Positions 1 through 12,518 of a stretch of 28,827 nucleotides of DNA are shown here, one piece after another; the stretch's first letter is position 1; every line of letters begins with the position of its first letter. Source of the DNA: a virus; the IMG/VR virus record IMGVR_UViG_3300044856_000229, positions 64,001 to 92,827 of that record; one strand, written 5' to 3'. The position numbers and the translations under genes were made by a program. The notes under the pieces were generated by a model. That model had not been told where the DNA came from. It saw nothing but the letters and a program-made list of their open reading frames with translations, and searched no databases.

Positions 1-80
1 TTGGAAAAGAACGTACTACCAACTTTTAATTCATAAATATAACTTCCTTTTTCCTTTTTTTCGCCCCAATTAATTTTCAT
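1..80 (-). CDS. hypothetical protein (partial, 3' end outside window)
   Basis: Minus-strand ORF open to the window edge. ATG at 80 with AAAGGAAA RBS about 9 nt upstream (alternative in-frame ATG at 89). Preceded by promoter at 113-141. Confidence 0.35.
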   Translation of the reverse strand, partial: MKINWGEKKEKGSYIYELKVGSTFFS

Positions 81-112
81 TTTTATCATTTCCTTTCTTT
101 TATTATGTATAT

Positions 113-141
113 ATAATATCATATTTTTTGTTGTTTGTCAA
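113..141 (-). promoter_or_regulatory. sigmaA-type promoter, leftward (TTGACA-17-TATTAT), with A/T-rich UP-like tract at 142-175
   Basis: Minus strand reads TTGACA (141..136), a 17-nt spacer, then TATTAT (118..113). Upstream tract CAATAGTTTTTTAAAATTTTT is paralogous to those at 3130 and 5670. Confidence 0.6.
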
Positions 142-157
142 TAGTTTTTTAAAATTT

Positions 158-640
158 TTACAAATTTTTGGTTTCGCTCACAAAGTATTTTACATGATAG
201 CCATTAAGTAATTCTTTTACTGCGATACTCTGCTTTTGTGTAGCACAATAGCAGTTAATTAAAATATACTTGTCAATGTCGATGTAATTACAAGGAATAT
301 CACAGTCTTTTAATCCATTGATTAATTTTTCCCAGTTCTCAGACTTATTAATTGTAGACTCTATTTTCCACAGGCGGTCTTTTCTTGCTTTTTCTTCTCC
401 CCATTTAACAATCCATACTCCCACAAGGTTAGCAAGAAAAGTTACAATAACTTTTTGCCACAATGGAAAATCTGCAACTGTATAAATAAGAACTACATTA
501 TAGTAACCATAGTAGCCCGCAGAAATAAGGCTCGCGATTGTTTTTCCAGATTTAATTGTTACAATAGATTTGATAGTTGAAAAGATAACATTTACGATTG
601 TTAATAATGAAAATAAAATTAATACATTCATGGGTTTCAC
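158..640 (-). CDS. hypothetical membrane protein (hydrophobic N-terminal half)
   Basis: 160-aa ORF. Own promoter at 662-690 and RBS GAGAAAGTGAG. N-terminal about 90 aa strongly hydrophobic. Confidence 0.7.
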   Translation of the reverse strand: MKPMNVLILFSLLTIVNVIFSTIKSIVTIKSGKTIASLISAGYYGYYNVVLIYTVADFPLWQKVIVTFLANLVGVWIVKWGEEKARKDRLWKIESTINKSENWEKLINGLKDCDIPCNYIDIDKYILINCYCATQKQSIAVKELLNGYHVKYFVSETKNL

Positions 641-661
641 TCACTTTCTCTTTTTTCTTTT

Positions 662-690
662 ATTATACACCTACTTATGGATTTTGTCAA
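662..690 (-). promoter_or_regulatory. sigmaA-type promoter, leftward (TTGACA-17-TATAAT)
   Basis: Minus strand reads TTGACA (690..685), a 17-nt spacer, then TATAAT (667..662). A perfect 22-bp palindrome GGACTATTTTATAAAATAGTCC lies immediately upstream at 691-712. Confidence 0.7.
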
Positions 691-712
691 GGACTATTTT
701 ATAAAATAGTCC
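691..712. repeat. perfect 22-bp palindrome GGACTATTTTATAAAATAGTCC overlapping stop codon of upstream gene
   Basis: The two halves are exact reverse complements. It sits between the stop of gene 699..989 and the -35 at 685-690. Possible terminator hairpin or operator. Confidence 0.6.
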
Positions 713-989
713 TAGTTGTGATTTTTAGCAGTTCACCTGTATTTTTATCATAATAAATAACTGCTTCTGTACCAATAGGACAAACATAATCGTCTATAGA
801 ATAAACCTTATCCCTCTGTTTGTTTTCAAATTCCATTGTGACAGAATCACTTTCTTCATGGTATATCTTTTTTGTGGCGGTCACTTCTGTATATCTTACA
901 TTGCTAGTATAATTTCCTGTAGCAACAATTACTATTATAATGATAATTGCCAAACCTATTCCGGCTAATACGTCACGCCATACTTTCAT
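699..989 (-). CDS. small membrane-anchored protein (N-terminal TM helix)
   Basis: ORF 699..1016. The ATG at 989 has strong RBS GTGAGGTGAtaaaaATG. The upstream ATG at 1016 has none. Run of hydrophobic residues after MKVWRDVLAG. Confidence 0.6.
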   Translation of the reverse strand: MKVWRDVLAGIGLAIIIIIVIVATGNYTSNVRYTEVTATKKIYHEESDSVTMEFENKQRDKVYSIDDYVCPIGTEAVIYYDKNTGELLKITTRTIL

Positions 990-1075
990 TTTTATCACCT
1001 CACATAAACATTTCAATTATTGCAACTATCCAGACTGCAAAGTTACTGAAAAGCAAAGTCCAAAAAATACACATT

Positions 1076-1204
1076 TTACATTTCCTCACTTTCCTTGAAG
1101 ATTTCTTCAATCAACTTTTTAGTTTCTTCTACACCAATGTATAAAGCTGATTTTTCGATTGCATCAAATAAAAGTGTTTTTACTTCCATTTCTTTTTCTG
1201 TCAT
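1076..1204 (-). CDS. small acidic protein, 42 aa (MTEKEMEVKTLLFDAIEKSALYIGVEETKKLIEEIFKESEEM)
   Basis: Unannotated short ORF directly downstream of promoter 1236-1264. RBS AGAGGAGAtaaaaaacATG. Followed by gene 699..989, so the two form an operon. Confidence 0.4.
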   Translation of the reverse strand: MTEKEMEVKTLLFDAIEKSALYIGVEETKKLIEEIFKESEEM

Positions 1205-1235
1205 GTTTTTTATCTCCTCTCTTGACTATGTACTT

Positions 1236-1264
1236 ATTATATCATGGGGGCTGAGGTTTGTCAA
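1236..1264 (-). promoter_or_regulatory. sigmaA-type promoter, leftward (TTGACA-17-TATAAT), -35 inside G5/C5 hairpin
   Basis: Minus strand reads TTGACA (1264..1259), spacer, then TATAAT (1241..1236). Plus-strand GGGGGctgaggtttgtcaaCCCCC is followed by a T-run. Confidence 0.65.
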
Positions 1265-1280
1265 CCCCCATTTTTAATTT

Positions 1281-1589
1281 TTAATGATTAAACCGCAGAT
1301 AATGAGTAAACCATTTTTTACCAAAATTTTCTTCTAACTGTTTTTCCTCTTCTGGATTCGTTTCCATGATTGAGATTTTCATAATTGTATCCCAGTCAAG
1401 AGTTGTAAACCAAGTCCCATCTTTCATACCTTTACTAAAACGGAACGTATCAAGAATAAAATCCATTGTTTCCTGTCGTTTAATTGTTTTCATACATTCT
1501 TCAAGAGAAATAATCTGGCTACCAAAAATTGGTTTAGTTTCACAACCTGTTACCTTCCATCCGCTAATCTTACTTTCAATTTTAATCAT
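1281..1589 (-). CDS. hypothetical protein
   Basis: 102-aa ORF. RBS AAAGAGAGGAAAAAAgATG (a cassette 5'UTR variant). Promoter at 1620-1648. Confidence 0.7.
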   Translation of the reverse strand: MIKIESKISGWKVTGCETKPIFGSQIISLEECMKTIKRQETMDFILDTFRFSKGMKDGTWFTTLDWDTIMKISIMETNPEEEKQLEENFGKKWFTHYLRFNH

Positions 1590-1619
1590 CTTTTTTCCTC
1601 TCTTTCATTTGATATATTT

Positions 1620-1648
1620 ATTATACTACAGGGGATTGAACTTGTCAA
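1620..1648 (-). promoter_or_regulatory. sigmaA-type promoter, leftward (TTGACA-17-TATAAT), -35 embedded in hairpin GGGGATTGAActtgTCAACCCC
   Basis: Minus strand reads TTGACA (1648..1643), spacer, then TATAAT (1625..1620). The hairpin at 1631-1652 is followed by a plus-strand T-run. Family B terminator-promoter element. Confidence 0.7.
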
Positions 1649-1656
1649 CCCCTATT

Positions 1657-1890
1657 TTATAAAATTCCTTCAATCTCGCAACATTTACGGAAAATTTTAA
1701 CACAATCATTCCAAGAGCCATCATCATTTGCATATTCTGCCAGAATATCATCATCCCATCCATCCTCAAGACCATAAGCAAACCATAAGTCCATTACTAC
1801 ATCTTCTCTGATATTTTCTTTAAGAAATGTATCCATCTTTTTGAGTAAATTCTTTCTAGTTTTAATCATCTCATTTCTTGATACTTCCAT
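1657..1890 (-). CDS. hypothetical acidic protein
   Basis: 77-aa ORF. RBS AAGGAAGGGGAAcaaataaATG. Tandem promoters at 1922-1950 and 2087-2115. Confidence 0.65.
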   Translation of the reverse strand: MEVSRNEMIKTRKNLLKKMDTFLKENIREDVVMDLWFAYGLEDGWDDDILAEYANDDGSWNDCVKIFRKCCEIEGIL

Positions 1891-1921
1891 TTATTTGTTC
1901 CCCTTCCTTATCTTTAAATAT

Positions 1922-1950
1922 AGTATACTATAGTCGAGCGGTTTTGTCAA
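1922..1950 (-). promoter_or_regulatory. sigmaA-type promoter, leftward (TTGACA-17-TATACT)
   Basis: Minus strand reads TTGACA (1950..1945), spacer, then TATACT (1927..1922). Flanks are paralogous to the promoter at 8445-8473 (TTGTCAATaTACAAAATAaCCAA). Confidence 0.65.
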
Positions 1951-2007
1951 TATACAAAATAACCAAAAGTAAAGTGTGATTTTGGGATTTTTTGTATAAG
2001 ATACCTA

Positions 2008-2037
2008 TTGACAAATAGTTATTTTATGTGTTATAAT
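2008..2037 (+). promoter_or_regulatory. rightward extended -10 promoter (TTGACA-18-TGtTATAAT) opposing the leftward genes
   Basis: Plus strand has TTGACA at 2008-2013, an 18-nt spacer, TG at -15/-14 and TATAAT at 2032-2037. The -35 sits inside CTATTgacAAATAG. Upstream TTTGTAtAA-N9 mirrors the GTGCA-N9 element of the other three rightward promoters. Confidence 0.55.
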
Positions 2038-2043
2038 TGAAGT

Positions 2044-2133
2044 TTGAGCCTCATGTGCGGGTGAAGCATTCGCCTGCGGCGCACTAATTTTATCACCTTT
2101 TGGAAGGTTTGTCAAGTAGTAAAATTGCACAAA
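2044..2133 (+). ncRNA. candidate short non-coding RNA (about 90-120 nt) from rightward promoter to bidirectional terminator
   Basis: No ORF (ATG TGC GGG TGA). GC-rich imperfect hairpin GUGCGGGUGAAGCAUUCGCCUGCGGCGCAC. Ends at terminator 2134-2165. Partly antisense to the leftward promoter 2087-2115 region. Confidence 0.3.
2087..2115 (-). promoter_or_regulatory. sigmaA-type promoter, leftward (TTGACA-17-TAAAAT), tandem with 1922-1950
   Basis: Minus strand reads TTGACA (2115..2110), spacer, then TAAAAT (2092..2087). No ORF between it and the next promoter. Confidence 0.5.
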
Positions 2134-2165
2134 AAACGCTGAATTAAAATCCAGCGTTTTGTATA
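2134..2165. terminator. bidirectional rho-independent terminator (AACGCTG-9nt-CAGCGTT flanked by A-run and T-run)
   Basis: 7-bp GC-containing stem with U-runs on both strands. Ends gene 2166..2540 (minus) and the rightward sRNA. TTGCACAAAA motif immediately upstream at 2124-2133. Confidence 0.7.
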
Positions 2166-2540
2166 TTATTTTCTCGGCATACTCAGTACAATTTTATATT
2201 TAGTACCATTCAGTTCAAAAAAGAACTCTCTCTCATTGTTAGTCACATCTAAATTTTCCGCCCCCATCTTTTCGACTGATTCTGTCAAAGCTGTGATGAT
2301 AGCTTGCTTTCCTTTGTTCTCTGGTTTTTTCCTTTTGGAAGTATCAAACTTGTAAACAGTTGTTTTTTTCTTGCGGTCTGCCTGTCGTGCCTTTTTAGAT
2401 GCTTTTTCCTGTTCTGGTGTTAATGTGAAAAGCTTTTCCCCCTTGTCTATTCTTTTATCATCTTCTAACATTTGCATTGCTTCTTCTCTGCTAATATCTA
2501 ACAATTTCATGTTACGTTCTATAATTTCATTGTCTGTCAT
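2166..2540 (-). CDS. hypothetical Lys-rich protein
   Basis: 124-aa ORF. RBS AAGAAAGGGtttaataATG. Co-transcribed with 2587..2958, since only a hairpin and no promoter lies between them. Confidence 0.7.
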   Translation of the reverse strand: MTDNEIIERNMKLLDISREEAMQMLEDDKRIDKGEKLFTLTPEQEKASKKARQADRKKKTTVYKFDTSKRKKPENKGKQAIITALTESVEKMGAENLDVTNNEREFFFELNGTKYKIVLSMPRK

Positions 2541-2565
2541 TATTAAACCCTTTCTTTAAATAGTA

Positions 2566-2580
2566 GGGGCTTTTCGCCCC
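2566..2580. terminator. intercistronic hairpin GGGGCttttcGCCCC (attenuator/partial terminator)
   Basis: 5-bp G/C stem with a T-rich plus-strand tail, sitting between the two genes of the operon. Confidence 0.4.
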
Positions 2581-2586
2581 CTTTAA

Positions 2587-2958
2587 TTATTTTGCAAAAA
2601 AGTATGCTTTGCGTTTTTCAACGATTCTATCAACTTTACCTTCACCGCAAAGGGCGGTTACAAGAGAAGTTACACGCTGATTTGAAAGTTCTTTCAAACC
2701 TTCAACTTCTTTCATCAATTCAGAAACGGTAAATCCACTGCCTGTATTTACAAGGTATTCAACAATCTTTTCTTTTAAGCTCTCATTTTCGAGCTGAGTT
2801 GCTGTAGGCTTACGATTTGCAGAAGATTTTTTGTTTACCTGTACAAGCATTTTGTCAAGTTTCTCGATAACTTCTGTATACTTTTCTGCATCAGTTTCTT
2901 TCATAACCTCGATTGCGGTTTCCAGTGCCATAGCGTTTGTCATTTTTTTGTCTGTCAT
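2587..2958 (-). CDS. hypothetical protein, possible winged-helix DNA-binding C-terminus
   Basis: The ORF-track start at 2967 is TTG. The ATG at 2958 has RBS AGGAattgataattATG. C-terminal segment FTVSELMKEV...SNQRVTSLVTALCGEGKVDRIVEKRKAYF resembles a wHTH. Confidence 0.6.
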   Translation of the reverse strand: MTDKKMTNAMALETAIEVMKETDAEKYTEVIEKLDKMLVQVNKKSSANRKPTATQLENESLKEKIVEYLVNTGSGFTVSELMKEVEGLKELSNQRVTSLVTALCGEGKVDRIVEKRKAYFFAK

Positions 2959-3011
2959 AATTATCAATTCCTTTCTTAATAAGAGATTTATTATTTGTTT
3001 TCTATGTTTTT

Positions 3012-3040
3012 ATTATAACACCTGTTGTCTTGTTTGTCAA
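3012..3040 (-). promoter_or_regulatory. sigmaA-type promoter, leftward (TTGACA-17-TATAAT)
   Basis: Minus strand reads TTGACA (3040..3035), spacer, then TATAAT (3017..3012). Context TAACACCTgTTGTCTTGTTTGTCAAGACCTTT is paralogous to the promoter at 9546-9574. Confidence 0.7.
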
Positions 3041-3107
3041 GACCTTTTTTATTTTTCTTTTGGGGGACTTCTCATTGTTTTTCACTTCCTTTCTTTATCT
3101 TGTAATA

Positions 3108-3136
3108 ATAATACCATATTTTTTACATTTTGTCAA
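3108..3136 (-). promoter_or_regulatory. sigmaA-type promoter, leftward (TTGACA-17-TATTAT) with UP-like A/T tract, tandem with 3012-3040
   Basis: Minus strand reads TTGACA (3136..3131), spacer, then TATTAT (3113..3108). Upstream TTTGTCAATGGTTTTTTTAAATTTTTTTCT is a family A element. Confidence 0.55.
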
Positions 3137-3158
3137 TGGTTTTTTTAAATTTTTTTCT

Positions 3159-3881
3159 TTATTTTTCCCACAGTCCAGTTCTCATCTTTTTGTGCTGTCT
3201 ATAACAATAATGACAGATTTCTTTTTCGATTAAAGTATCTTCAAGTCCAGTGTGTTTTTCTACAAAAGTATTATCTTTTGTGATGAATCTATAAAGGATT
3301 TCGGCTGTTACTCTCAGTTGTCCTCTAGTTGTGAGATAATTATTCTCTTCACAAAATCTTCTGTATGATGACATTTTGCATACTACATCACGTGCCATTT
3401 TCATAGTATCGCAGATTTCCAAACCATAAGGAAAGAAATATCTATATTTTGATTTAGTCAACCAACGCTGAGTAGTGTTTAATGTGCCATAGTCAAAACG
3501 CATGTTATGAGCAAAAACCTTTTTTACGTTGTAACGTTCACAACACTCTACAAGCTGTTTTCTGATATTGTAGAAAGATGTTAAAATTCTTTTACCGCTT
3601 TTGATATCTTCCCAGTACATCGGAATTTTCTCTGCATAATATGAGGATTTCATAAGCTCTTTTTCTTCAAGAAAAATGTCAGCGTTTACAAATGACCATG
3701 TTTCAAAAACCTCACCAGTACGTTTGTTGATAACAGCAAAACCGCAATCATAAACCCACATATTAGTTGGAAGCACCTGTTCTAATGATTTGTCTACTGG
3801 ACAAGTTTCTGTATCAATTACAATTGAGTAATCCATTCTTCTGTCAATTTTGTTTGTGTTTTTTCTGTTGATAAATTCCAT
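3159..3881 (-). CDS. DnaQ-like DEDDh 3'-5' exonuclease
   Basis: Exo I IVIDTETC, Exo II FAHNMRFDYGTL and Exo III HTGLEDTLIEKE motifs in the canonical order and spacing. RBS GAGAGAGAGGtaaacaaaaATG. Confidence 0.75.
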   Translation of the reverse strand: MEFINRKNTNKIDRRMDYSIVIDTETCPVDKSLEQVLPTNMWVYDCGFAVINKRTGEVFETWSFVNADIFLEEKELMKSSYYAEKIPMYWEDIKSGKRILTSFYNIRKQLVECCERYNVKKVFAHNMRFDYGTLNTTQRWLTKSKYRYFFPYGLEICDTMKMARDVVCKMSSYRRFCEENNYLTTRGQLRVTAEILYRFITKDNTFVEKHTGLEDTLIEKEICHYCYRQHKKMRTGLWEK

Positions 3882-3914
3882 TTTTGTTTACCTCTCTCTC
3901 ATTTCTATGTCTTT

Positions 3915-3943
3915 ATTATACCATCAGTGAAGAGGTTTGTCAA
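3915..3943 (-). promoter_or_regulatory. sigmaA-type promoter, leftward (TTGACA-17-TATAAT)
   Basis: Minus strand reads TTGACA (3943..3938), spacer, then TATAAT (3920..3915). Confidence 0.7.
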
Positions 3944-4009
3944 GAACTTTTTTAACTTTTTTATAAGTTTTTTATTTGCTTTCTTGTCTTTCTCTTCCTT
4001 ACAAGTATT

Positions 4010-4038
4010 ATAATACCACAAGTCATTGAGGATTGCAA
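4010..4038 (-). promoter_or_regulatory. candidate leftward extended -10 promoter (TTGCAA-17-TGgTATTAT), tandem upstream of 3915-3943
   Basis: Minus strand reads TTGCAAtcctcaatgacttgTGGTATTAT. Resembles the extended -10 promoter at 9920-9948. Confidence 0.35.
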
Positions 4039-4106
4039 GGATTATTTTGAAAAAAATTGCACAAAATGGGATAAATATTTGCGGAAAAATTTGTGCATTT
4101 TTCCTC

Positions 4107-4136
4107 TTGACAAAGTGTGGCGACCTGTGGTATAAT
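4107..4136 (+). promoter_or_regulatory. rightward extended -10 promoter (TTGACA-18-TGgTATAAT) with upstream GTGCA-N9 element
   Basis: TTGACA at 4107-4112, GGCGACCTGTGG spacer, TATAAT at 4131-4136. Core TTTTCCTCTTGACAAA...GGCGACCTGTGGTATAATT is nearly identical to the copy at 8532-8561. Confidence 0.6.
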
Positions 4137-4142
4137 TTTTCG

Positions 4143-4204
4143 GGCAGCAGTCGAGCCTAACTGTCTGTACGGTCATTAAAAAAAGAAAGCGTTTAAACGC
4201 TTTC
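4143..4204 (+). ncRNA. candidate short non-coding RNA (about 60 nt) ending in bidirectional terminator
   Basis: No ORF. Starts GGGCAGCAG, like the 8568 copy which starts GGGACAGCAGG. Contains AGCCUAACUGUCUG, identical to a 14-nt stretch at 8703-8716 inside leftward small gene 8603..8749. The terminator hairpin is shared with the 3' end of leftward small gene 4193..4315. Confidence 0.3.
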
Positions 4205-4210
4205 TTTTAC
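4177..4210. terminator. bidirectional terminator: perfect 20-bp palindrome GAAAGCGTTTAAACGCTTTC flanked by A7 and T4
   Basis: Exact palindrome at 4185-4204 with U-runs on both strands. Overlaps the stop codon of 4193..4315. Confidence 0.7.
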
Positions 4211-4315
4211 ATCTACCATTTTAATTCTGTGCGGTCTGTCTTTTGCCTCTGCATAGCTTGTGGTTTCCTTTACAATTTTTTTACCTTCCATAATCTGATA
4301 AACAACTTTTCTCAT
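4193..4315 (-). CDS. small protein, 40 aa (MRKVVYQIMEGKKIVKETTSYAEAKDRPHRIKMVDVKESV)
   Basis: Unannotated ORF. RBS AAGAGAGGtattaagaATG. Its stop lies inside the bidirectional terminator. Upstream is a degenerate hairpin element GGGTTAAGCCC and a TATAAT at 4344-4349. Confidence 0.4.
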   Translation of the reverse strand: MRKVVYQIMEGKKIVKETTSYAEAKDRPHRIKMVDVKESV

Positions 4316-4377
4316 TCTTAATACCTCTCTTTTCTATGATTTAATTATACTATAGGGTTAAGCCCTATCTTTATTTT

Positions 4378-4635
4378 TTAATCTTTTTCAATAACTCTAA
4401 AGTCCATGTTTAATGCAGATAAGACTTCTTCTGGATTAAGACTGTGCCCTTCACGAATAATGTTTAAATTTGTTCTGTCAATCAATCGAATCCAATCTTC
4501 TGACTTTTCAACAATAATACAAGGTTCATTAGATAAACAAGGACAAAAACCTTTACAATTAGCTTTTCCCTCACCGTGACGTCCTGCATAACAACCCTCG
4601 AGTTCCGCACATCTATAACATTTGTTTTCTACCAT
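4378..4635 (-). CDS. Cys-rich small protein (7 Cys in first 40 aa; probable metal-binding)
   Basis: 85-aa ORF. Cassette RBS AAAGAGAGGAAAgaaaaATG. Pattern CxxC..C...C..C.C..C. Confidence 0.7.
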   Translation of the reverse strand: MVENKCYRCAELEGCYAGRHGEGKANCKGFCPCLSNEPCIIVEKSEDWIRLIDRTNLNIIREGHSLNPEEVLSALNMDFRVIEKD

Positions 4636-4666
4636 TTTTCTTTCCTCTCTTTCATTTGATACATTA

Positions 4667-4695
4667 AGTATACATTACTTTTGGTTATTTGTCAA
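4667..4695 (-). promoter_or_regulatory. sigmaA-type promoter, leftward (TTGACA-17-TATACT) with conserved 5'UTR cassette
   Basis: Minus strand reads TTGACA (4695..4690), spacer, then TATACT (4672..4667). The 29-bp block CCTCTCTTTCATTTGATACATTAAGTATA at 4644-4672 is identical at 6101-6130 and 8241-8270. Confidence 0.7.
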
Positions 4696-4710
4696 TAAGT
4701 AAAAATGTAT

Positions 4711-4742
4711 AAAAAATGAGCTAAAAATCAGCTTATTTTTTA
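4711..4742. terminator. bidirectional terminator (TGAGCT-7nt-AGCTTA between A6 and T6)
   Basis: Short stem with U-runs on both strands. Follows the stop of gene 4746..5093. Confidence 0.5.
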
Positions 4743-4745
4743 CGT

Positions 4746-5093
4746 CTATTCTTTAATAAAAACTGTTATGTTACTAATCCTCTGAGCGGTACTTGCTACG
4801 TCCTCTTTTATTGAATAACCATTTTCTTCTAATAATTTTGTAAATATTGTAAAATTAAGGAAAACATTTTCGTCTTGAACTCTGTCGTATAAATAAAAAT
4901 AATCTTCTTTGCCCCATCTTTCAAAGAATTTTATTCTAAAGCTTGTTACTAAAGGACGACCCTCTTCTGCGTATCCATAAAGTTTAGAAATTATTCTTTC
5001 ATTTATAAATTTTTCTGTATTAGAAGTAGCTTGTATAAAAGCTTCTATACAAATTTTCCGTTTCATTTCTAAAATTTCTTTTGCTTTCATCAC
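4746..5093 (-). CDS. hypothetical protein
   Basis: 115-aa ORF. RBS AAAGAGAGAGtaaataattgtgATG. No promoter between it and upstream gene 5139..5618, only the 15-bp palindrome. Confidence 0.65.
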   Translation of the reverse strand: MMKAKEILEMKRKICIEAFIQATSNTEKFINERIISKLYGYAEEGRPLVTSFRIKFFERWGKEDYFYLYDRVQDENVFLNFTIFTKLLEENGYSIKEDVASTAQRISNITVFIKE

Positions 5094-5125
5094 AATTATT
5101 TACTCTCTCTTTCTTTATTAATATT

Positions 5126-5158
5126 TCTGGGGGAACTCTCAGAAAAATTTTCTGAGAG
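5126..5158. repeat. perfect 15-bp-arm palindrome GGAACTCTCAGAAAA-a-TTTTCTGAGAGTTCC spanning stop codon of NT5C paralog 1
   Basis: The arms are exact reverse complements. The left arm encodes the last residues (GTLRKF) and the TGA stop lies in the right arm. Possible terminator, RNase III site or operator. Confidence 0.6.
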
Positions 5159-5618
5159 TTCCAATAATGTCGTTTACATCAAAGCTGTTCTCGCCCCACT
5201 CTTCTCTATTACGTTTTTCATCATCAAAGAGCCAACCGTTACAATCAACAACTGTGCTTTTTGGTGTGCCATAGTTTACAATTTTAACCTCATCCCATTC
5301 AACACTAGGAAGATGTTTTTCGAGCCATGCAAGTTTTACGCTTGTTACTGCCGTGTTATAAGCTGTCGAACCATATTTGCTGAGCCAACTTACAATACCG
5401 ATTCTATAACCGTTTGCCTGTAATTTATGTAATACTCTTGCAAATACTGAGAAGTTAAACAGCGGTCTTGCTACTGCATAAGGTGTGGTATCCTCATTTT
5501 CCAGATAGTCCAACCAGTTTTCTACACCATAGAAGTTAGCAAGTGTGCCGTCCATGTCAAAGTAAATAGTTCCTTTTGTTTCCATCATTCCTTTAATTGT
5601 ATTCATCATAATCATCAA
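5139..5618 (-). CDS. HAD-superfamily 5'(3')-deoxyribonucleotidase (NT5C-like), paralog 1
   Basis: HAD motif I FDMDGTLANF. WLEKHLP...VKIVNYGTPKSTVV...GWLFDDE matches the NT5C signature W.EK.FG...IVLT.DK...D.LIDD. About 150 aa. The true start may be the internal ATG at 5588 (METKGTIYFDMDGT), by analogy with paralog 2. Confidence 0.7.
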   Translation of the reverse strand: MMIMMNTIKGMMETKGTIYFDMDGTLANFYGVENWLDYLENEDTTPYAVARPLFNFSVFARVLHKLQANGYRIGIVSWLSKYGSTAYNTAVTSVKLAWLEKHLPSVEWDEVKIVNYGTPKSTVVDCNGWLFDDEKRNREEWGENSFDVNDIIGTLRKFF

Positions 5619-5647
5619 ATCCTTTCTTTTTCCTTTTCTTTAATTAT

Positions 5648-5676
5648 ATTATATACTATCTTTTATAATTTGTCAA
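5648..5676 (-). promoter_or_regulatory. sigmaA-type promoter, leftward (TTGACA-17-TATAAT) with UP-like tract
   Basis: Minus strand reads TTGACA (5676..5671), spacer, then TATAAT (5653..5648). Upstream TTTGTCAACAGTTTTTTTAAATTTTTTTCT is a family A element. Confidence 0.7.
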
Positions 5677-5697
5677 CAGTTTTTTTAAATTTTTTTC

Positions 5698-6093
5698 TCA
5701 GATTTTTGTAATTCCTCTATCTCTTAAATACTCACAAAAGCTTTCAGCGTCCAGTATTTCCGCAAGTCCTTTCATTGAAAGGTTCATTTTGTTATACGAA
5801 CAACGCACTTCAATCGGCTTGAAATTTCTTTCTGTGATAGCTGTTGATAAATAATCTTCAACGTTGCTTAATCGAACAACTGTTTTTCTGAAAATGTTTT
5901 TTGAAAGTTCAGCATTCATAAATAAATCATCTTTTACAAGTTCCACGAGTTCATCAAAAGTTTTAATTGTAAATGTTTGTGTCTTTGCTTCTTCTGGTGT
6001 AAGATATTTTACATGTTTCCAGATACTTGTATCAACAAAATTTTTCCATCCTTCCATTCTGTATTCAAATCTATAATCATAAATCTCTTTCAT
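5698..6093 (-). CDS. hypothetical protein
   Basis: The ATG at 6093 has cassette RBS AAAGAGAGGAAAtaaaaATG. The ORF-track N-terminal extension to 6156 reads through the promoter (MLTSSTL is the reverse complement of the TTGACA hairpin) and is rejected. Confidence 0.7.
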   Translation of the reverse strand: MKEIYDYRFEYRMEGWKNFVDTSIWKHVKYLTPEEAKTQTFTIKTFDELVELVKDDLFMNAELSKNIFRKTVVRLSNVEDYLSTAITERNFKPIEVRCSYNKMNLSMKGLAEILDAESFCEYLRDRGITKI

Positions 6094-6124
6094 TTTTATT
6101 TCCTCTCTTTCATTTGATACATTA

Positions 6125-6153
6125 AGTATAACACATAAGGTTGAACTTGTCAA
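6125..6153 (-). promoter_or_regulatory. sigmaA-type promoter, leftward (TTGACA-17-TATACT), -35 in hairpin GGTTGAActtgTCAAC; -35 overlaps stop codon of 6150..6386
   Basis: Minus strand reads TTGACA (6153..6148), spacer, then TATACT (6130..6125). The upstream gene ends ...KMC* with its TGA stop inside TTGACA. Confidence 0.7.
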
Positions 6154-6386
6154 CACATTTTTAAATTTCTTTTTTTCGCTTCTTCAGTTGTTAATCCATA
6201 ACTTTTCCATGGGTCATATTTTCCGAATAAAATTGTTTCATCAACTGTATCACACATTTTATTATTTACATTATAGTCATAATAAAACCACTTTTTACAA
6301 TCCCATTTAAGCGGACAGTGATAACAAGTTGTTGTAGTTGCTACAGTATCCATGTTTATTGCTAATAATGCTTTTATCTTAATCAT
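6150..6386 (-). CDS. small Cys-containing protein
   Basis: 78-aa ORF. RBS AGGAAGAGGGGtaaacaaaaATG. Only a degenerate promoter upstream (TATAAT at 6415-6420, with the -35 degraded to CCACAA). Confidence 0.6.
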   Translation of the reverse strand: MIKIKALLAINMDTVATTTTCYHCPLKWDCKKWFYYDYNVNNKMCDTVDETILFGKYDPWKSYGLTTEEAKKRNLKMC

Positions 6387-6461
6387 TTTTGTTTACCCCT
6401 CTTCCTTTATCTTGATTATAGTATATCATAGTTGTGGAAAAATGTCTATAGGCAAATTGCA

Positions 6462-6496
6462 CAAAAAAAAGAGCTGAAATTTCAGCTCTTTTTTCT
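6462..6496. terminator. bidirectional terminator: perfect 20-bp palindrome AGAGCTGAAATTTCAGCTCT flanked by A8/T6
   Basis: Palindrome at 6470-6489. A TTGCACAAAA motif is directly adjacent at 6457-6466. Ends gene 6496..6681. Confidence 0.7.
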
Positions 6497-6681
6497 TACT
6501 GCTCCTTTGTTACACTTTTCACAAGCGACCGCAATTCCGCAACTCCAAAAGAGTCCATATACGCGGTCATTGCCTTTTTCAAATCTGCCGTTCTCTTGGC
6601 TCTCAACTGCCCTACCATCCAGTTGTATTCTTCTTCATTTAATTCGTAAGGACAACAACCACTTTCTTTTAATTCATACAT
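6496..6681 (-). CDS. small hypothetical protein (61 aa)
   Basis: RBS AAAGAGAGGAAcaaaaaATG. Tandem promoters at 6716-6744 and 6780-6808. Confidence 0.6.
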   Translation of the reverse strand: MYELKESGCCPYELNEEEYNWMVGQLRAKRTADLKKAMTAYMDSFGVAELRSLVKSVTKEQ

Positions 6682-6715
6682 TTTTTGTTCCTCTCTTTCT
6701 TTATCTTATGTACTT

Positions 6716-6744
6716 ATTATATCAGAGATTCGGGCTTTTGTCAA
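6716..6744 (-). promoter_or_regulatory. sigmaA-type promoter, leftward (TTGACA-17-TATAAT)
   Basis: Minus strand reads TTGACA (6744..6739), spacer, then TATAAT (6721..6716). Confidence 0.65.
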
Positions 6745-6779
6745 CCCTCTTCCTCACTTTTATCTCTTTTGTTAATTAT

Positions 6780-6808
6780 AATATATCACATGGGGTTGAA
6801 TTTGTCAA
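6780..6808 (-). promoter_or_regulatory. sigmaA-type promoter, leftward (TTGACA-17-TATATT) in hairpin GGGGTTGAAtttgTCAACCCC, tandem with 6716-6744
   Basis: Perfect 8-bp-stem hairpin at 6792-6811, followed by a plus-strand T-run. Confidence 0.55.
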
Positions 6809-6824
6809 CCCCAATTTTTATTTT

Positions 6825-7172
6825 TTATCTTTCTTTTAATCCATGTATTATAATTGTATGACCGCAATTATCACAAGTATAATAATATTCATCATCACTA
6901 TTTCTATGATGTACTGCATTTACGAACTTATAAGGCTCATTACATTCTGTGCAATATCCGTTGTTCCATGCTTCATCATCATCTTTGTTTTGTAATGTAA
7001 CCAACCCACCAACACCGCAACCAATAGCAACCGCAAGTATAATTCCTACTATCCATTTGACTATTGGTTTGCTGTCCTCTGCTATAATATTTACAATAAA
7101 TATTGCCATGTAACTGCCGACTGTCAAACTCATAAGTATTGATGTTAAAATAAATTCTGCCGTGTAATTCAT
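6825..7172 (-). CDS. membrane protein (2 TM) with C-terminal zinc-ribbon (CTEC...CDNC)
   Basis: The ATG at 7172 has RBS AAAGAGAGGtaaataaaATG. The ORF-track extension to 7232 is the translation of the promoter hairpin and is rejected. Confidence 0.7.
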   Translation of the reverse strand: MNYTAEFILTSILMSLTVGSYMAIFIVNIIAEDSKPIVKWIVGIILAVAIGCGVGGLVTLQNKDDDEAWNNGYCTECNEPYKFVNAVHHRNSDDEYYYTCDNCGHTIIIHGLKER

Positions 7173-7203
7173 TTTATTTACCTCTCTTTCTTTAACTGTC
7201 TTT

Positions 7204-7232
7204 ATTATAACATAAGAGGTTGAACTTGTCAA
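7204..7232 (-). promoter_or_regulatory. sigmaA-type promoter, leftward (TTGACA-17-TATAAT) in hairpin GAGGTTGAActtgTCAACTCC
   Basis: Minus strand reads TTGACA (7232..7227), spacer, then TATAAT (7209..7204). Confidence 0.7.
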
Positions 7233-7236
7233 CTCC

Positions 7237-7533
7237 TTATCTAAAAAATTCTTTTGCTGTCTCTCTGTATTTTTTTGGAAGGCTTGCGATAAATTTTTCT
7301 TTATCTTCTTCTGACAGTGTTCTTCTTAACTGTCTTGTTGTTACTGAGAATGGATTTAGATGATATTTAAGTATTAATGGAAACGCTCTAATGAATACGA
7401 GTGTTTTAAACGCTTCTATAATTTTGCCAAGGATTTCAACAGGTATCCAAAACCATTTCCATTCATTATAAAAACTTAAATAGCTAAGTGCATACATTAC
7501 AATAACAATTACTACTACTAATGATACTCTCAT
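7237..7533 (-). CDS. small membrane protein
   Basis: 98-aa ORF. RBS AAAGAGAGGtaaatgaaATG. Hydrophobic N-terminus. Confidence 0.7.
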   Translation of the reverse strand: MRVSLVVVIVIVMYALSYLSFYNEWKWFWIPVEILGKIIEAFKTLVFIRAFPLILKYHLNPFSVTTRQLRRTLSEEDKEKFIASLPKKYRETAKEFFR

Positions 7534-7565
7534 TTCATTTACCTCTCTTTCTTTTCTATGTTTTC

Positions 7566-7594
7566 ATTATAACATAAAGGGTTGAACTTGTCAA
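7566..7594 (-). promoter_or_regulatory. sigmaA-type promoter, leftward (TTGACA-17-TATAAT) in perfect hairpin GGGTTGAActtgTCAACCC
   Basis: Minus strand reads TTGACA (7594..7589), spacer, then TATAAT (7571..7566). On the minus strand the hairpin is followed by UUUAUGUUAU and on the plus strand by TTTATTTT, so it can act as a terminator in both directions. Confidence 0.7.
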
Positions 7595-7603
7595 CCCTTT
7601 ATT

Positions 7604-7750
7604 TTAAATTAATTGTAAAAGATAACTTCCATCATTGATAGCAAGAATTCTCACAATTTCATCTTTATTCTGAGAAAGAATCTCACCTGTTGAACAGTCA
7701 ATTAATGCGGTTTCATAACCTTTTTCAATGTAAAGCCCTAAAATCATCAT
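7604..7750 (-). CDS. small protein, 48 aa (MMILGLYIEKGYETALIDCSTGEILSQNKDEIVRILAINDGSYLLQLI)
   Basis: Unannotated ORF. RBS AAGAAAGAGGTGttttttATG. Confidence 0.4.
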   Translation of the reverse strand: MMILGLYIEKGYETALIDCSTGEILSQNKDEIVRILAINDGSYLLQLI

Positions 7751-7766
7751 AAAAAACACCTCTTTC

Positions 7767-7913
7767 TTAAACAAGCTTTAACAAGTTACCGTCTTTATCA
7801 AAACAAAAACCCACAGTTTCATCTGATACAACCTCAAAATAGTCTGAGTCATTTACTGGAATCCATAATCCAGCATTTCTAAAAATTTCTAATAATTTTT
7901 CTTTATCATTCAT
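7767..7913 (-). CDS. small protein, 48 aa (MNDKEKLLEIFRNAGLWIPVNDSDYFEVVSDETVGFCFDKDGNLLKLV)
   Basis: Unannotated ORF. RBS AGAAAGAGAGGtaaagaaaATG. Downstream of promoter 7940-7968. Confidence 0.45.
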   Translation of the reverse strand: MNDKEKLLEIFRNAGLWIPVNDSDYFEVVSDETVGFCFDKDGNLLKLV

Positions 7914-7939
7914 TTTCTTTACCTCTCTTTCTAATACCT

Positions 7940-7968
7940 ATTATACCAGTCCTTGACTTATTTGTCAA
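7940..7968 (-). promoter_or_regulatory. sigmaA-type promoter, leftward (TTGACA-17-TATAAT) in inverted repeat CCTTGACttatttGTCAAGG
   Basis: Minus strand reads TTGACA (7968..7963), spacer, then TATAAT (7945..7940). Confidence 0.7.
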
Positions 7969-8239
7969 GGACTATTTTTTTAATTTCATCATCATAGATG
8001 TTATTGTCAGTGTGCATTGTATCCATGATAAGTTTTACATTATCACCAATTTCAAGGTCTGTGCCGTCCTCAAAATAATACTCCCAGTCATTTCCAGTAG
8101 CATCTGTGAAGGTTGCAAGATTGTTATTCACTTCTACAACCTCTGCGGTTCTGGTGTATGTACTCTCATAAGCTCCCACACCACCAATTGCTGTGATACC
8201 CACCATAATTGCTAATACTGTTTTAATCATCTTCATCAT
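7958..8239 (-). CDS. small secreted/membrane-anchored protein (N-terminal signal-like segment)
   Basis: 93-aa ORF. The cassette RBS abuts the first ATG, so the real start may be the ATG at 8230 (MIKTVLAIMVG). Hydrophobic N-terminus followed by an acidic domain. Confidence 0.65.
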   Translation of the reverse strand: MMKMIKTVLAIMVGITAIGGVGAYESTYTRTAEVVEVNNNLATFTDATGNDWEYYFEDGTDLEIGDNVKLIMDTMHTDNNIYDDEIKKIVLDK

Positions 8240-8264
8240 TTCCTCTCTTTCATTTGATACATTA

Positions 8265-8293
8265 AGTATAACACCAAGTTACTCATTTGTCAA
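8265..8293 (-). promoter_or_regulatory. sigmaA-type promoter, leftward (TTGACA-17-TATACT) with conserved 5'UTR cassette
   Basis: Minus strand reads TTGACA (8293..8288), spacer, then TATACT (8270..8265). The -35 lies inside the 3' coding end of small ORF 8279..8413. Confidence 0.7.
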
Positions 8294-8413
8294 GTCTTTT
8301 TTCTCATATTTTTCTAATTCTTCTTCTATTGCATCATACTCATCGTTAAATAATTCACAAGCATTGATTACACACTGCATGATAAATGTTATCTGTTCTT
8401 TAGTAAATTCCAT
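8279..8413 (-). CDS. small acidic protein, 44 aa (MEFTKEQITFIMQCVINACELFNDEYDAIEEELEKYEKKDLTNE)
   Basis: Unannotated ORF. RBS AAAGGGGAAcaaaaacATG. Promoter at 8445-8473. Confidence 0.4.
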   Translation of the reverse strand: MEFTKEQITFIMQCVINACELFNDEYDAIEEELEKYEKKDLTNE

Positions 8414-8444
8414 GTTTTTGTTCCCCTTTCTTTATCTTGATTAT

Positions 8445-8473
8445 AGTATACTACAAGCCAATAGGTTTGTCAA
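8445..8473 (-). promoter_or_regulatory. sigmaA-type promoter, leftward (TTGACA-17-TATACT)
   Basis: Minus strand reads TTGACA (8473..8468), spacer, then TATACT (8450..8445). Paralogous to the promoter at 1922-1950. Confidence 0.65.
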
Positions 8474-8531
8474 TGTACAAAATAGCCAATTTCGGGAAGC
8501 AAATTATTTAATATTTTGTGCAATTTTCCTC

Positions 8532-8561
8532 TTGACAAACTGCGGCGACCTGTGGTATAAT
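8532..8561 (+). promoter_or_regulatory. rightward extended -10 promoter (TTGACA-18-TGgTATAAT) with upstream GTGCA-N9 element
   Basis: TTGACA at 8532-8537 and TATAAT at 8556-8561. Near-identical core to the copy at 4107-4136. GTGCA ends 9 nt before the -35. Confidence 0.6.
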
Positions 8562-8567
8562 TAGTTG

Positions 8568-8608
8568 GGACAGCAGGCGACCATAGCGGTTGCCCATTTC
8601 TTTTAATA
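8568..8608 (+). ncRNA. candidate short non-coding RNA (about 40 nt) antisense to 3' end of leftward gene 8603..8749
   Basis: Starts GGGACAGCAGG. Hairpin GGCGACCatagcGGTTGCC followed by CATTTCTTTT. Overlaps the stop codon region of the convergent small gene. Confidence 0.3.
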
Positions 8609-8749
8609 CTCTATAATTGTATGCATCAATCGCATCAACTGTTCATTGGTAAACTCTCCCGACTCACAATCTTCACAAAACATAACAGTTAGTGGACTCT
8701 CAAAGCCTAACTGTCTGATTACATTATCCATCATTTCTTTTACTGTCAT
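8603..8749 (-). CDS. small protein, 48 aa (MTVKEMMDNVIRQLGFESPLTVMFCEDCESGEFTNEQLMRLMHTIIEY)
   Basis: Unannotated ORF. RBS AGGAGGtcatgacaATG. An alternative start 2 codons upstream is too close to the RBS. Promoter at 8781-8809. Confidence 0.45.
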   Translation of the reverse strand: MTVKEMMDNVIRQLGFESPLTVMFCEDCESGEFTNEQLMRLMHTIIEY

Positions 8750-8780
8750 TGTCATGACCTCCTTCTCTTAACTTGATTAT

Positions 8781-8809
8781 AGTATACTACAATCAGATTG
8801 ATTTGTCAA
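8781..8809 (-). promoter_or_regulatory. sigmaA-type promoter, leftward (TTGACA-17-TATACT)
   Basis: Minus strand reads TTGACA (8809..8804), spacer, then TATACT (8786..8781). Confidence 0.65.
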
Positions 8810-9045
8810 TAGGAAAATAAAAAATATTTTAAAAATATTTTTGCTTTCCCGCATTAATCCTTTACTACTGGAATGCTGTAGTGTTGCGTTACTTTAACGC
8901 TTTACCACTTTAGTGTAGTGAAGTCTTGCCCTCATTATCTTTGTTATTCTATTAACATTCCTGTTAATTTTTTAACAATCTGCGTCCCACGAACCGCAGA
9001 ACGTAGATAAAGAGAGAACGTTTGTTCTCTCCTCTCTTTATCTCT
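8810..9045. other. 235-bp non-coding block with tandem AAAATATTTT palindromes, multiple short G/C hairpins and inverted repeat TGTTAA-N4-TTAACA
   Basis: No ORF with an RBS. Partly paralogous to 9840-9960 (ACTACTGG(G)AAT(G/C)C..GT and the TGTTAATTTTTTAACAA element). Candidate structured RNA or regulatory region. Confidence 0.35.
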
Positions 9046-9513
9046 TTACACATGATACTGTATTAACTCTTTAAGCACGTCCATCATAACCACAGCATCA
9101 ACACTTGCACCTTGCCACTCTTCTCTATTCCTTGCTTCATCATCGAATAGTATTCCACCACAAGGCACTGCCGCACGTTTATTCTGTCCATACTCTGTTA
9201 CAATAATCTCATTCCAATTAACACTAGGAAGATGCTTCTTTAACCATTTCCTTTTGGCTTCTTCTATTGCTTGCACATAGTCAAGTGTTGCGTCCTTACT
9301 TGCCCATGAGATAACACCTAACTTATAACCTCTTCTCTGTAGTGCATTAATACGCCTTGCAAATAGACTCATAGATACAAGCGGTCTTGCTATCTCATAA
9401 GGCACTATACTACCATGCACCAGATAGTCAAGCCAACCTTCTACACTGTAAAGGTCTGCAATAGTTCCATCTAAATCGAACCACAACCATTTATTATCTA
9501 ACATACTAATCAC
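9046..9513 (-). CDS. HAD-superfamily 5'(3')-deoxyribonucleotidase (NT5C-like), paralog 2
   Basis: FDLDGTIADL (HAD motif I) and WLKKHLP...IIVTEYGQNKRAAV...GILFDDE. About 45% identical to paralog 1 at 5139..5618. The ORF-track start at 9513 is GTG. The ATG at 9504 (MLDNKWLWFDLDGT) is likely the real start. Confidence 0.7.
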   Translation of the reverse strand: MISMLDNKWLWFDLDGTIADLYSVEGWLDYLVHGSIVPYEIARPLVSMSLFARRINALQRRGYKLGVISWASKDATLDYVQAIEEAKRKWLKKHLPSVNWNEIIVTEYGQNKRAAVPCGGILFDDEARNREEWQGASVDAVVMMDVLKELIQYHV

Positions 9514-9545
9514 TCTTTCTTTCTTTTATCTTTATCTTTATATTT

Positions 9546-9574
9546 ATTATAACACCTTTGTGCTTGCTTGTCAA
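9546..9574 (-). promoter_or_regulatory. sigmaA-type promoter, leftward (TTGACA-17-TATAAT)
   Basis: Minus strand reads TTGACA (9574..9569), spacer, then TATAAT (9551..9546). Paralogous to the promoter at 3012-3040. Confidence 0.7.
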
Positions 9575-9635
9575 GACCTTTCTTTGTGTCTTTGTCTTGC
9601 CTCTTGGCTCAAGGGTTAGCCTGAGCTAACCCATC

Positions 9636-9755
9636 CTATGCCAGATAAGTCTCGAGGATAGAGCCACCTACTCTCTTGGCAGTTAGTTCAGCCAAACTTT
9701 TGCTACTTGTCAATAAAACGAATTTTCCCTCTCTATCAATAACCTCATACTTCAT
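9636..9755 (-). CDS. small protein, 39 aa (MKYEVIDREGKFVLLTSSKSLAELTAKRVGGSILETYLA)
   Basis: Unannotated ORF. RBS AAAGAGAGGAAcaaaaacATG. Followed by hairpin GGGTTAGCtcagGCTAACCC. Promoter at 9792-9820. Confidence 0.45.
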   Translation of the reverse strand: MKYEVIDREGKFVLLTSSKSLAELTAKRVGGSILETYLA

Positions 9756-9791
9756 GTTTTTGTTCCTCTCTTTCTCTCTTTCTTTATACAT

Positions 9792-9820
9792 AGTATAGCA
9801 TACAAGTAGCTACTTGTCAA
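9792..9820 (-). promoter_or_regulatory. sigmaA-type promoter, leftward (TTGACA-17-TATACT)
   Basis: Minus strand reads TTGACA (9820..9815), spacer, then TATACT (9797..9792). Confidence 0.65.
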
Positions 9821-9919
9821 GAGGTTTTTATAAATTTTCTTTGTTAATTTTTTAACAAGCGAACTACTGGGAATCGCAGTTTTCGTCACCAACTTACGCT
9901 CCATGAGAGCACCAAATCT

Positions 9920-9948
9920 ATTATACCACAGATGTGCGGTGATGTCAA
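9920..9948 (-). promoter_or_regulatory. leftward extended -10 promoter (TTGACA-17-TGgTATAAT), tandem upstream of 9792-9820
   Basis: Minus strand reads cATTGACAtcaccgcacatctgTGGTATAATag. Resembles the rightward promoters through CTGTGGTATAAT. Confidence 0.55.
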
Positions 9949-9957
9949 TGGGTAACA

Positions 9958-10056
9958 TTGCACAAAGATTGACTACTGATTTTGTGCAATGTGCTGAAAA
10001 TTATTTTTGTGCAAAGTGACGAAATTTGGGAAAAAAATTAAAATATTTTTGTGCAA
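9958..10056. promoter_or_regulatory. array of TTTTGTGCAA motifs (direct copies at 9980-9989, 10005-10014, 10047-10056; inverted copy at 9958-9967) upstream of rightward promoter
   Basis: Exact 10-mer repeats. The last copy is positioned GTGCA-N9-TTGACA, as at the three other rightward promoters. Candidate activator/repressor site or UP-element array. Confidence 0.45.
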
Positions 10057-10064
10057 CTTTTTGC

Positions 10065-10094
10065 TTGACAAATTGTTGTGTCTCGTGTTATAAT
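10065..10094 (+). promoter_or_regulatory. rightward extended -10 promoter (TTGACA-18-TGtTATAAT)
   Basis: TTGACA at 10065-10070 and TATAAT at 10089-10094, with TG at -15/-14. Confidence 0.55.
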
Positions 10095-10100
10095 GGAAAT

Positions 10101-10170
10101 TCGGGCCTGCGCTTGCGTCTACGGCCCGAGGATTTGACGAGAGCGTCATTACTTTTTATGTATTTTTCCC
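10101..10170 (+). ncRNA. candidate short non-coding RNA (GC-rich hairpin GGGCC-15nt-GGCCC, then GACGagaGCGTC + U-tract)
   Basis: No ORF. Structured 5' end followed by a U-rich tail. Lies in the 360-bp non-coding gap 9959-10320. Confidence 0.25.
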
Positions 10171-10629: not shown

Positions 10630-10647
10630 AGTTATCTCCTTTATAGG

Positions 10648-12484: not shown

Positions 12485-12518
12485 TTTTCTTCCTTTTTTT
12501 ATTTATTTTATATATATA

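Follow-up and report, generated by a model that had tools for sequence, protein, structure and literature searches.

The window analysed here is the whole stretch of 28,827 nt at positions 64,001 to 92,827 of IMG/VR virus record IMGVR_UViG_3300044856_000229. Its left part is a leftward (minus-strand) early region of small genes served by an array of about 24 cassettes, each made of a consensus promoter and a purine-rich leader (Table 1). To the right of 13.4 kb, genes on the plus strand encode a sigma-like/HNH protein, the large terminase, the portal and virion proteins. Divergent, back-to-back promoters at 13386-13448 (minus strand 13414, plus strand 13420) part the early array from the rightward sigma-like/terminase/structural module. 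The first rightward gene (13472-14581) matches a phage "sigma factor" PHROG (E=5e-48), and its product has an HNH/endonuclease-VII-like zinc-finger region at residues ~291-353. The terminase shares 49% identity with its counterparts in Enterococcus phages VRE9_4, H1 and EF1 and in Geobacillus virus E3, with SPbeta-type YonF as more distant kin. Judging from sequence, the source is a large phage akin to Enterococcus phage H1. The hosts are apparently low-GC Gram-positive bacteria.

Table 1. Coordinates of the cassette array, the repeat copies, their -35 elements and the genes behind them (window positions).
Feature	Position	Strand	Description
Cassette array	78-13414	-	About 24 cassettes of consensus promoter and purine-rich leader; small early genes
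Gene behind diverged copy	1281-1589	-	102-aa ORFan
Diverged copy	1597-1625	-	-10 at 1620-1625; TATAAT-AAATA haplotype, same leader family
Diverged copy, -35	1643-1648	-	Within a strong G/C-tract hairpin
Gene behind copy 1	4378-4635	-	85-aa Cys-rich ORFan; ATG at 4633-4635
Copy 1, 32-nt block	4641-4672	-	-10 TATACT at 4667-4672; SD AAAGAGAGG at 4644-4652
Copy 1, -35 TTGACA	4690-4695	-	17-nt spacer, unrelated to the spacers of copies 2 and 3
Gene behind copy 2	5698-6093	-	131-aa ORFan; ATG at 6091-6093
Copy 2, 32-nt block	6099-6130	-	-10 at 6125-6130; SD at 6102-6110
Copy 2, -35 TTGACA	6148-6153	-	Within a weak 5-bp hairpin, GTTGAcaagtTCAAC
Gene behind copy 3	7958-8239	-	ORFan of about 91-93 aa, hydrophobic N-terminus
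Copy 3, 32-nt block	8239-8270	-	-10 at 8265-8270; SD at 8242-8250
Copy 3, -35 TTGACA	8288-8293	-	

An earlier note on this DNA had pointed to a 29-bp repeat that occurs identically at three sites. A search of the window places the exact 29-mer CCTCTCTTTCATTTGATACATTAAGTATA at 4644-4672, 6102-6130 and 8242-8270. Hence, the three sites stand, and the starts given for the second and third (6101 and 8241) were off by one. A diverged copy had also been reported at 1597-1630; it is present, with 3 mismatches (26/29), but it spans 1597-1625. The 29-mer had no match in 100 dinucleotide-preserving shuffles. The block that is identical across the three exact copies is in fact 32 nt long (TATACTTAATGTATCAAATGAAAGAGAGGAAA, minus strand), and it is bounded by the upstream edge of the -10 hexamer on one side and by a point 3 nt beyond the SD on the other. 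Outside these bounds, the -35/-10 spacers, the sequence farther upstream and the coding sequences of the three copies are all unrelated. The repeat is thus not part of longer duplicated coding segments, since the flanks differ on both sides.

Read on the minus strand, each exact copy gives TTGACA, a 17-nt spacer, TATACT, TAATGT, ATCAAATGAAAGAGAGG and ATG, and the anatomy of every copy agrees with the earlier assignment of the repeat as a -10 element, leader and RBS. The promoters of the three exact copies (TTGACA-17 nt-TATACT) match the consensus at 11/12 positions, and two of them carry a TGn extended -10; the diverged copy has TATAAT as its -10 and matches at 12/12. Directly 5ʹ of TTGACA lie A-runs (for example aaaaaagac, tttaaaaatgtg and aaaatagggg). 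In all four copies the SD is AAAGAGAGG, followed after 2-8 nt by ATG. A complete cassette, in minus-strand order, therefore consists of an A-rich tract, TTGACA (often enclosed in a G-tract/C-tract hairpin), a 17-nt spacer, TATACT or TATAAT, the leader and ATG, where the leader is unstructured, purine-rich, ~25 nt long and ends in AAAGAGAGG. On our best reading, the repeat would be the downstream half of a portable early cassette that supplies the -10, the discriminator, a 5ʹ UTR of ~25 nt and the SD. Host sigma-A RNA polymerase would be expected to start ~7 nt past the -10, at the A of ATC, and a start at this A would yield the 5ʹ UTR of ~25 nt. Such a short, unstructured leader with a 5ʹ-proximal SD would favour strong immediate-early expression of the adjoining small gene. 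An upstream ATG within the leader of copies 2 and 3 opens a mini-ORF, MKERK*, which we rejected as a functional element: it has no SD of its own, it lies too far from the -10 for leaderless translation, and it is gone in functional-looking leader variants (AAAAG).

The genes behind the repeat had been described as unrelated, and we agree: the four downstream proteins have no detectable similarity to each other (blastp, E>4). Neither these four proteins nor several of the neighbouring small minus-strand ORFs at 1-13.4 kb have PHROG or Pfam matches. The start of the copy 3 gene is ambiguous, with ATGs at 8237-8239, 8234-8236 and 8228-8230. Three other early genes, all on the minus strand, do have matches. 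A 285-aa gene at 11627-12484 matches the PHROG "tRNA-His guanylyltransferase" (Thg1-like, E=1.5e-84); ARAGORN found no tRNA genes in the whole window. Two paralogous genes (5139-5618 and 9046-9513) both match 5ʹ-3ʹ deoxyribonucleotidase (PHROG 2643), and are 80% identical over a 44-nt stretch (5285-5328 and 9204-9247).

Within the array, the leaders are generally purine-rich and 25-35 nt long, and each is followed by an SD and ATG. They fall into families: A, which is the repeat itself, B, with TATACTataatcaagataaagaaagg, and C, which begins TATAATaaagacatagaaa. The repeat is, as we read the sequence of the array, one leader subtype among its ~24 cassettes. Almost half of the cassettes (11/24) form a stable hairpin over the -35 and spacer (at or below -6 kcal/mol); seven of the 24 fold at -10.8 to -19.5 kcal/mol, and in six of these seven the stem is built from G/C tracts and spans the -35. 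The cassette hairpin of the diverged copy (1648) has a folding energy of -14.5 kcal/mol, and those of the three exact copies are weak (-0.5 to -2.9 kcal/mol). Strong G-tract/C-tract hairpins enclosing the -35 lie at 1236-1264, 1620-1671, 6780-6813, 7204-7255, 7566-7602 and 7940-7973, and several of them have a common core, GTTGACAAGTTCAAC. On the plus strand, where T-runs follow, they score as intrinsic terminators; they could stop antisense transcripts, attenuate read-through, or both.

The choice of SD also differs between gene classes. AAAGAGAGG occurs 11 times on the minus strand, in front of promoter-proximal early genes, and never on the plus strand. Among 15 structural genes, eight have an AGGAGG/GGAGG SD and none has the GAGAGG variant, and a few promoter-distal early genes have (A)GGAG(G), for example AAGGAG. 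Hence, the SD variant travels with the cassette.

How widespread is the cassette? The exact 29-mer is found at 22 loci on ~17 IMG/VR contigs of 100-195 kb, from five metagenomes. Among 14 matches in genome collections, nine are phage-like contigs in MAG bins from independent studies, and five are chance matches from which the promoter is absent. The nine phage-like contigs were binned with Erysipelotrichaceae, Egerieisoma, Treponema, Prevotellaceae and rumen bins; we attempted to infer the host from these bins and abandoned the attempt because the taxa are inconsistent. When cultured phages were searched by megablast with the early region, nothing matched, and a 63-nt query containing promoter and leader found no copy of the leader in them, with only generic, promoter-like similarity of 75-80% in phages of Enterococcus, Listeria and Lactococcus. 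One cultured isolate, Enterococcus phage H1 (L041; OP534061.1, 5400-13000), has an early-region layout like that of the window. It has ~18 consensus early promoters with hairpins over the -35, and a 19-nt leader of its own, TATAAAGAATAAGGAGTGA, which stands ahead of four unrelated genes (H1_85, 86, 87 and 97). Because phage H1 shares the layout but has its own leader, the cassette architecture is a property of the phage group, and the leaders are lineage-specific. Our literature searches found no prior description of this architecture for the phage group.

The window and most of its relatives are metagenome assemblies, and most of the related contigs come from a single metagenome (3300045988), such that strain-mixing in assembly could have yielded some false mosaics. 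It could be argued from this that the repeat is an artefact of chimeric assembly or, alternatively, that it marks the edge of larger duplicated coding segments. We consider this the least probable of the explanations weighed here, and only barely credible. The flanks of the three copies share nothing on either side, the cassette occurs in five metagenomes as well as in independent MAG studies, and an isolate genome, that of phage H1, has the same architecture.

At the loci of the relatives, the exact 29-mer precedes at least nine unrelated ORF families. From all retrieved loci we assembled a set of 326 non-redundant strong promoters, whose genes fall into 60 protein clusters. An 18-nt core, TATCAAATGAAAGAGAGG, is present with no more than two mismatches in 82 of the 326 promoters, ahead of 21 of the 60 clusters; 59 promoters, in 16 clusters, have the core exactly. 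In 76 of its 77 occurrences, the 17-mer leader core ATCAAATGAAAGAGAGG, again with up to two mismatches allowed, keeps a fixed distance to a -10 hexamer; in just 1/77 it is a promoter-less internal RBS. There are two leader haplotypes at the junction of promoter and leader: TATACT is followed by TAATG without exception (27/27), and TATAAT is followed by AAATG, AAACT, AAAGT and similar sequences. The TATACT-TAATG haplotype occurs behind six unrelated spacer groups and serves nine protein clusters.

These data bear on whether each gene could have arrived independently at the same optimal promoter and leader, under selection for maximal expression in the host. The leaders of the array are all unstructured, rich in purines and ~25-35 nt long, a likeness that hints at general selection in favour of strong translation and perhaps also of 5ʹ stability. 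Convergence would nevertheless be a very improbable source of the repeat itself. It does not predict exact identity over 32 nt, the array works with many other leaders as well, and a non-consensus -10 goes with one and the same discriminator in every case, whatever the gene or spacer. This linkage points to copying rather than convergence.

Comparison with related contigs also reveals how the cassettes are exchanged. Homology between the window and its relatives is mosaic. Among 71 distinct BLAST homology breakpoints, whose positions are approximate because HSP ends are imprecise, 24 fall inside cassette blocks, defined as -35 to ATG; these blocks make up 11.5% of the region, and the enrichment is ~3-fold (binomial p=6.5e-7). 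Several more breakpoints lie within a few bases of a block edge. This enrichment is not proof of recombination by homology inside cassettes, both because of the imprecision of HSP ends and because breakpoints at intergenic boundaries are expected under any form of shuffling. Several junctions can be located individually. In L027, the copy 2 gene is under a different promoter, and identity with the window picks up at GAAAGAGAGG. L019 lacks one gene unit, corresponding to window positions 8294-8465, with the junction in the TTGACA common to the two flanking cassettes. The same contig has an insertion in the copy 2 cassette: a gene unit (86 aa) that brings its own family-B leader and a new -35 module has split the cassette precisely where its -35/spacer half meets its -10/leader half. 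The whole promoter of window copy 1 recurs in L022, with an unrelated gene behind it, and orthologues of the copy 1 gene in other phages have the other leader haplotype.

The same exchange is seen within protein clusters. In 58 promoter pairs the spacers are unrelated and the leaders differ at no more than two positions, and in 23 pairs the spacers are near-identical and the leaders differ at 9 or more of 24 positions. Together, the junctions and these mix-and-match promoter pairs indicate that the -35/spacer half and the -10/leader half are separately exchangeable modules. The earlier suggestion of cassette-like shuffling of expression signals is thus borne out in the relatives: one cassette serves many unrelated genes, one gene is found behind different cassettes, and indel junctions lie inside cassettes. 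The equal spacing of 1458 bp between two copies in the window and in L006 was set aside as coincidence, since the cassettes alone align. Tandem consensus promoters 64 nt apart occur at 6744-6808 (-35 at 6808 and 6744). The upstream promoter is followed by the next promoter in place of an ORF, and may be the scar of a deleted gene unit.

Could the leader itself be a signal? The earlier note had raised selection on a processing site or a translational operator as the alternative to shuffling. Our analysis does not support this. The leader and first codons have no predicted RNA structure: the MFE lies between 0 and -2.7 kcal/mol, the leader stays unpaired throughout, and z ranges from -0.02 to +1.9. 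A structured operator or processing hairpin is thereby rejected. The early region has no Rfam matches at E<=1, and two chance-level matches lie outside it. A search of the 32-nt block for dyad or direct-repeat symmetry longer than 4 nt found none, with self-complementarity limited to TATA, making a classical dimeric operator unlikely. Between orthologous promoters, leaders differ at 0.117-0.150 and spacers at 0.137-0.168 positions per site, a comparison that is confounded by leader swaps and by its ungapped alignment; in the orthologous alignment of copy 2, the coding sequence is conserved to the same degree as the promoter. With the leader about as divergent as the spacer, and the coding sequence behaving like the promoter, the main argument for leader-specific selection is removed.

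The leader AUCAAAUGAAAGAGAGG could be a class tag that is recognized by a regulator or endoribonuclease, either as a DNA operator that overlaps the start site or, at the SD, as an RNA site. The factor, encoded by phage or host, would co-regulate these early genes as a subset, and might for instance silence them as RegA and RegB do in T4. Several features fit. The conserved block runs from the -10 through the transcribed leader, well past what sigma-A needs, and keeps a fixed distance from the promoter; the leaders form the discrete families A, B and C; cassette genes use GAGAGG where structural genes use GGAGG; and an exact 20-nt transcribed segment that is kept across many contexts is also what a sequence-specific function would produce. 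We nonetheless regard a class tag as unlikely. The lack of symmetry and of RNA structure weighs against it, as does the finding that the orthologous leader is no more conserved than a functionless spacer. Furthermore, linked variants that look neutral (TATACT with T, TATAAT with A) indicate copying, and we identified no candidate regulator. A narrower proposal, to which we assign a slightly lower likelihood still, is that the early-class leader AUCAAAUGAAAGAGAGG with its GAGAGG SD is the recognition tag for a post-transcriptional switch of the phage, a RegB-like nuclease or RegA-like repressor, that turns off the early-gene class. If a tag of this kind does exist, each newly captured ORFan would automatically gain the right temporal programme.

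We propose that the repeat is probably part of a mobile regulatory cassette, similar to the PeSLs of T4-type phages, that large gut phages use for their early genes. Cassette reuse, haplotype linkage, modular exchange and junctions located in cassettes are all direct outcomes of the genome comparison. The comparison also shows that the cassette is copied and recombined both whole and in its two halves. Under our proposal, the identity over 32 nt within one genome would be identity by descent, maintained by recombination or gene conversion between cassettes, and would not reflect a specially selected RNA signal. Cassettes would act as short homology linkers through which small early genes are gained, lost and swapped with their expression intact. 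Recombination may proceed by homology inside the 32-mer, and 32 nt of identity is at the lower limit for homologous recombination.

PeSLs provide the closest parallel. They combine an A/T-rich tract, a sigma-70 consensus promoter, a stem-loop and an SD with ATG; the stem-loop has G/C tracts and varies in position, including over the -35 or between the boxes (Arbiol et al. 2010, PMC2839356; Comeau et al. 2014, PMC4122927). They are dense in ORFan-rich hyperplastic regions, where they mediate indels, and crossovers have been mapped between the -10 and the SD (PMC2839356, PMC4122927). A role as homology linkers for the exchange of small genes is the mechanism proposed for them in T4-type phages (PMC2839356, PMC4122927). 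The array described here has, likewise, an A/T tract, consensus -35 and -10 elements, and an SD with ATG at the 3ʹ end. It sits in an ORFan-dense, plastic region with the junctions of indels and replacements inside cassettes. For the stem-loop the parallel is mixed: it extends to 11 of the 24 cassettes, several with G/C-tract stems over the -35, but not to the three exact copies, whose hairpins are weak. There are also clear differences. The cassettes have no sequence homology to T4-type PeSLs and belong to a lineage that, by its terminase and portal module, is not T4-like (H1/VRE9_4, Geobacillus E3, SPbeta-type), and their promoter consensus is of the Gram-positive sigma-A type. Unlike in PeSLs, the -10/leader half behaves as a haplotype of its own, and many genomes carry it without change. 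Promoter activity, terminator activity and excised mini-circles have been demonstrated for PeSLs; the promoters of the cassettes are predicted from sequence. We class the cassette as an analogue of the PeSL and not its homologue.

A second parallel is with the putative mobile promoters of cellular genomes, which are 50-100 nt long, at least 80% identical, and located upstream of non-homologous CDSs of a single genome (Matus-Garcia et al. 2012, PMC3488235). The genes downstream of the cassette are similarly non-homologous. In contrast to those elements, identity between cassettes is high over 32-40 nt only, the 88-nt family as a whole being 61-72% identical, and the setting is the early region of a phage.

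Large phages of Gram-positive hosts have early promoter arrays, of which the host-takeover module of SPO1 is an example, and in these, as in the array described here, numerous short early genes are each provided with a promoter of host type and an RBS, both strong. For such arrays, we know of no report, from a search that was not exhaustive, of an exact leader haplotype across unrelated genes or genomes, or of indels bounded by cassettes. Bacillus 5ʹ stabilizers of the polypurine/SD type, such as those of SP82 early RNA and the cryIIIA STAB-SD, place a strong SD-like polypurine tract near the 5ʹ end of the RNA. The leaders resemble them in having such a tract close to the 5ʹ end and in being unstructured. 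By this analogy, a role as 5ʹ stabilizer could explain why the leaders of the array are alike; it accounts for their composition but not for exact identity over 32 nt.

What is the wider significance of these cassettes? Our findings extend the idea of promoter/RBS cassettes as recombination linkers beyond the T4-like myoviruses of Gram-negative hosts, to unrelated large phages in gut and rumen metagenomes. Being compact, the cassette can serve to mark immediate-early genes in these uncultured phages, genes that are likely to act in host takeover or against host defences, and a metagenome search with the exact 29-mer recovers relatives. In Enterococcus phage H1, which is cultured and tractable, promoter activity, recombination between cassettes and any leader-specific regulation can be studied.

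The window also contains a second class of promoters, with a perfect TTGACA and TATAAT at 18-nt spacing on the plus strand and a conserved TTTGTGCAA located 8-11 nt upstream of the -35. These lie at 2008-2115, 4085-4175, 8510-8600, 9840-9964 and 10043-10150, and the class is also present in L004, L006, L007, L022, L032 and L041 (4361 and 7551). Counting the window and the retrieved loci, there are 46 non-redundant instances. Most point against the early genes, and none of them heads an ORF. What they drive is 5ʹ-GAAAUUC with a GC-rich hairpin of 7-9 bp, whose stem varies between copies and folds at -10 to -20 kcal/mol. In the direction of the early genes, this hairpin precedes a U-rich tract, complementary to the -10 and discriminator, and the element thus resembles an early-gene terminator joined head-on to an antisense promoter. 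These elements had no Rfam or tRNA match, and RNAalifold aligned their GC-rich parts poorly, with no usable consensus. They may serve in antisense shut-off, as a polymerase roadblock or as a small RNA. One convergent pair (plus strand 2008, minus strand 2115) flanks 2038-2086. A further element, at 6465-6494, is a perfect palindrome with 19-nt arms, AAAAAAGAGCTGAAATTTCAGCTCTTTTTT, between A- and T-runs, and looks like a bidirectional terminator.
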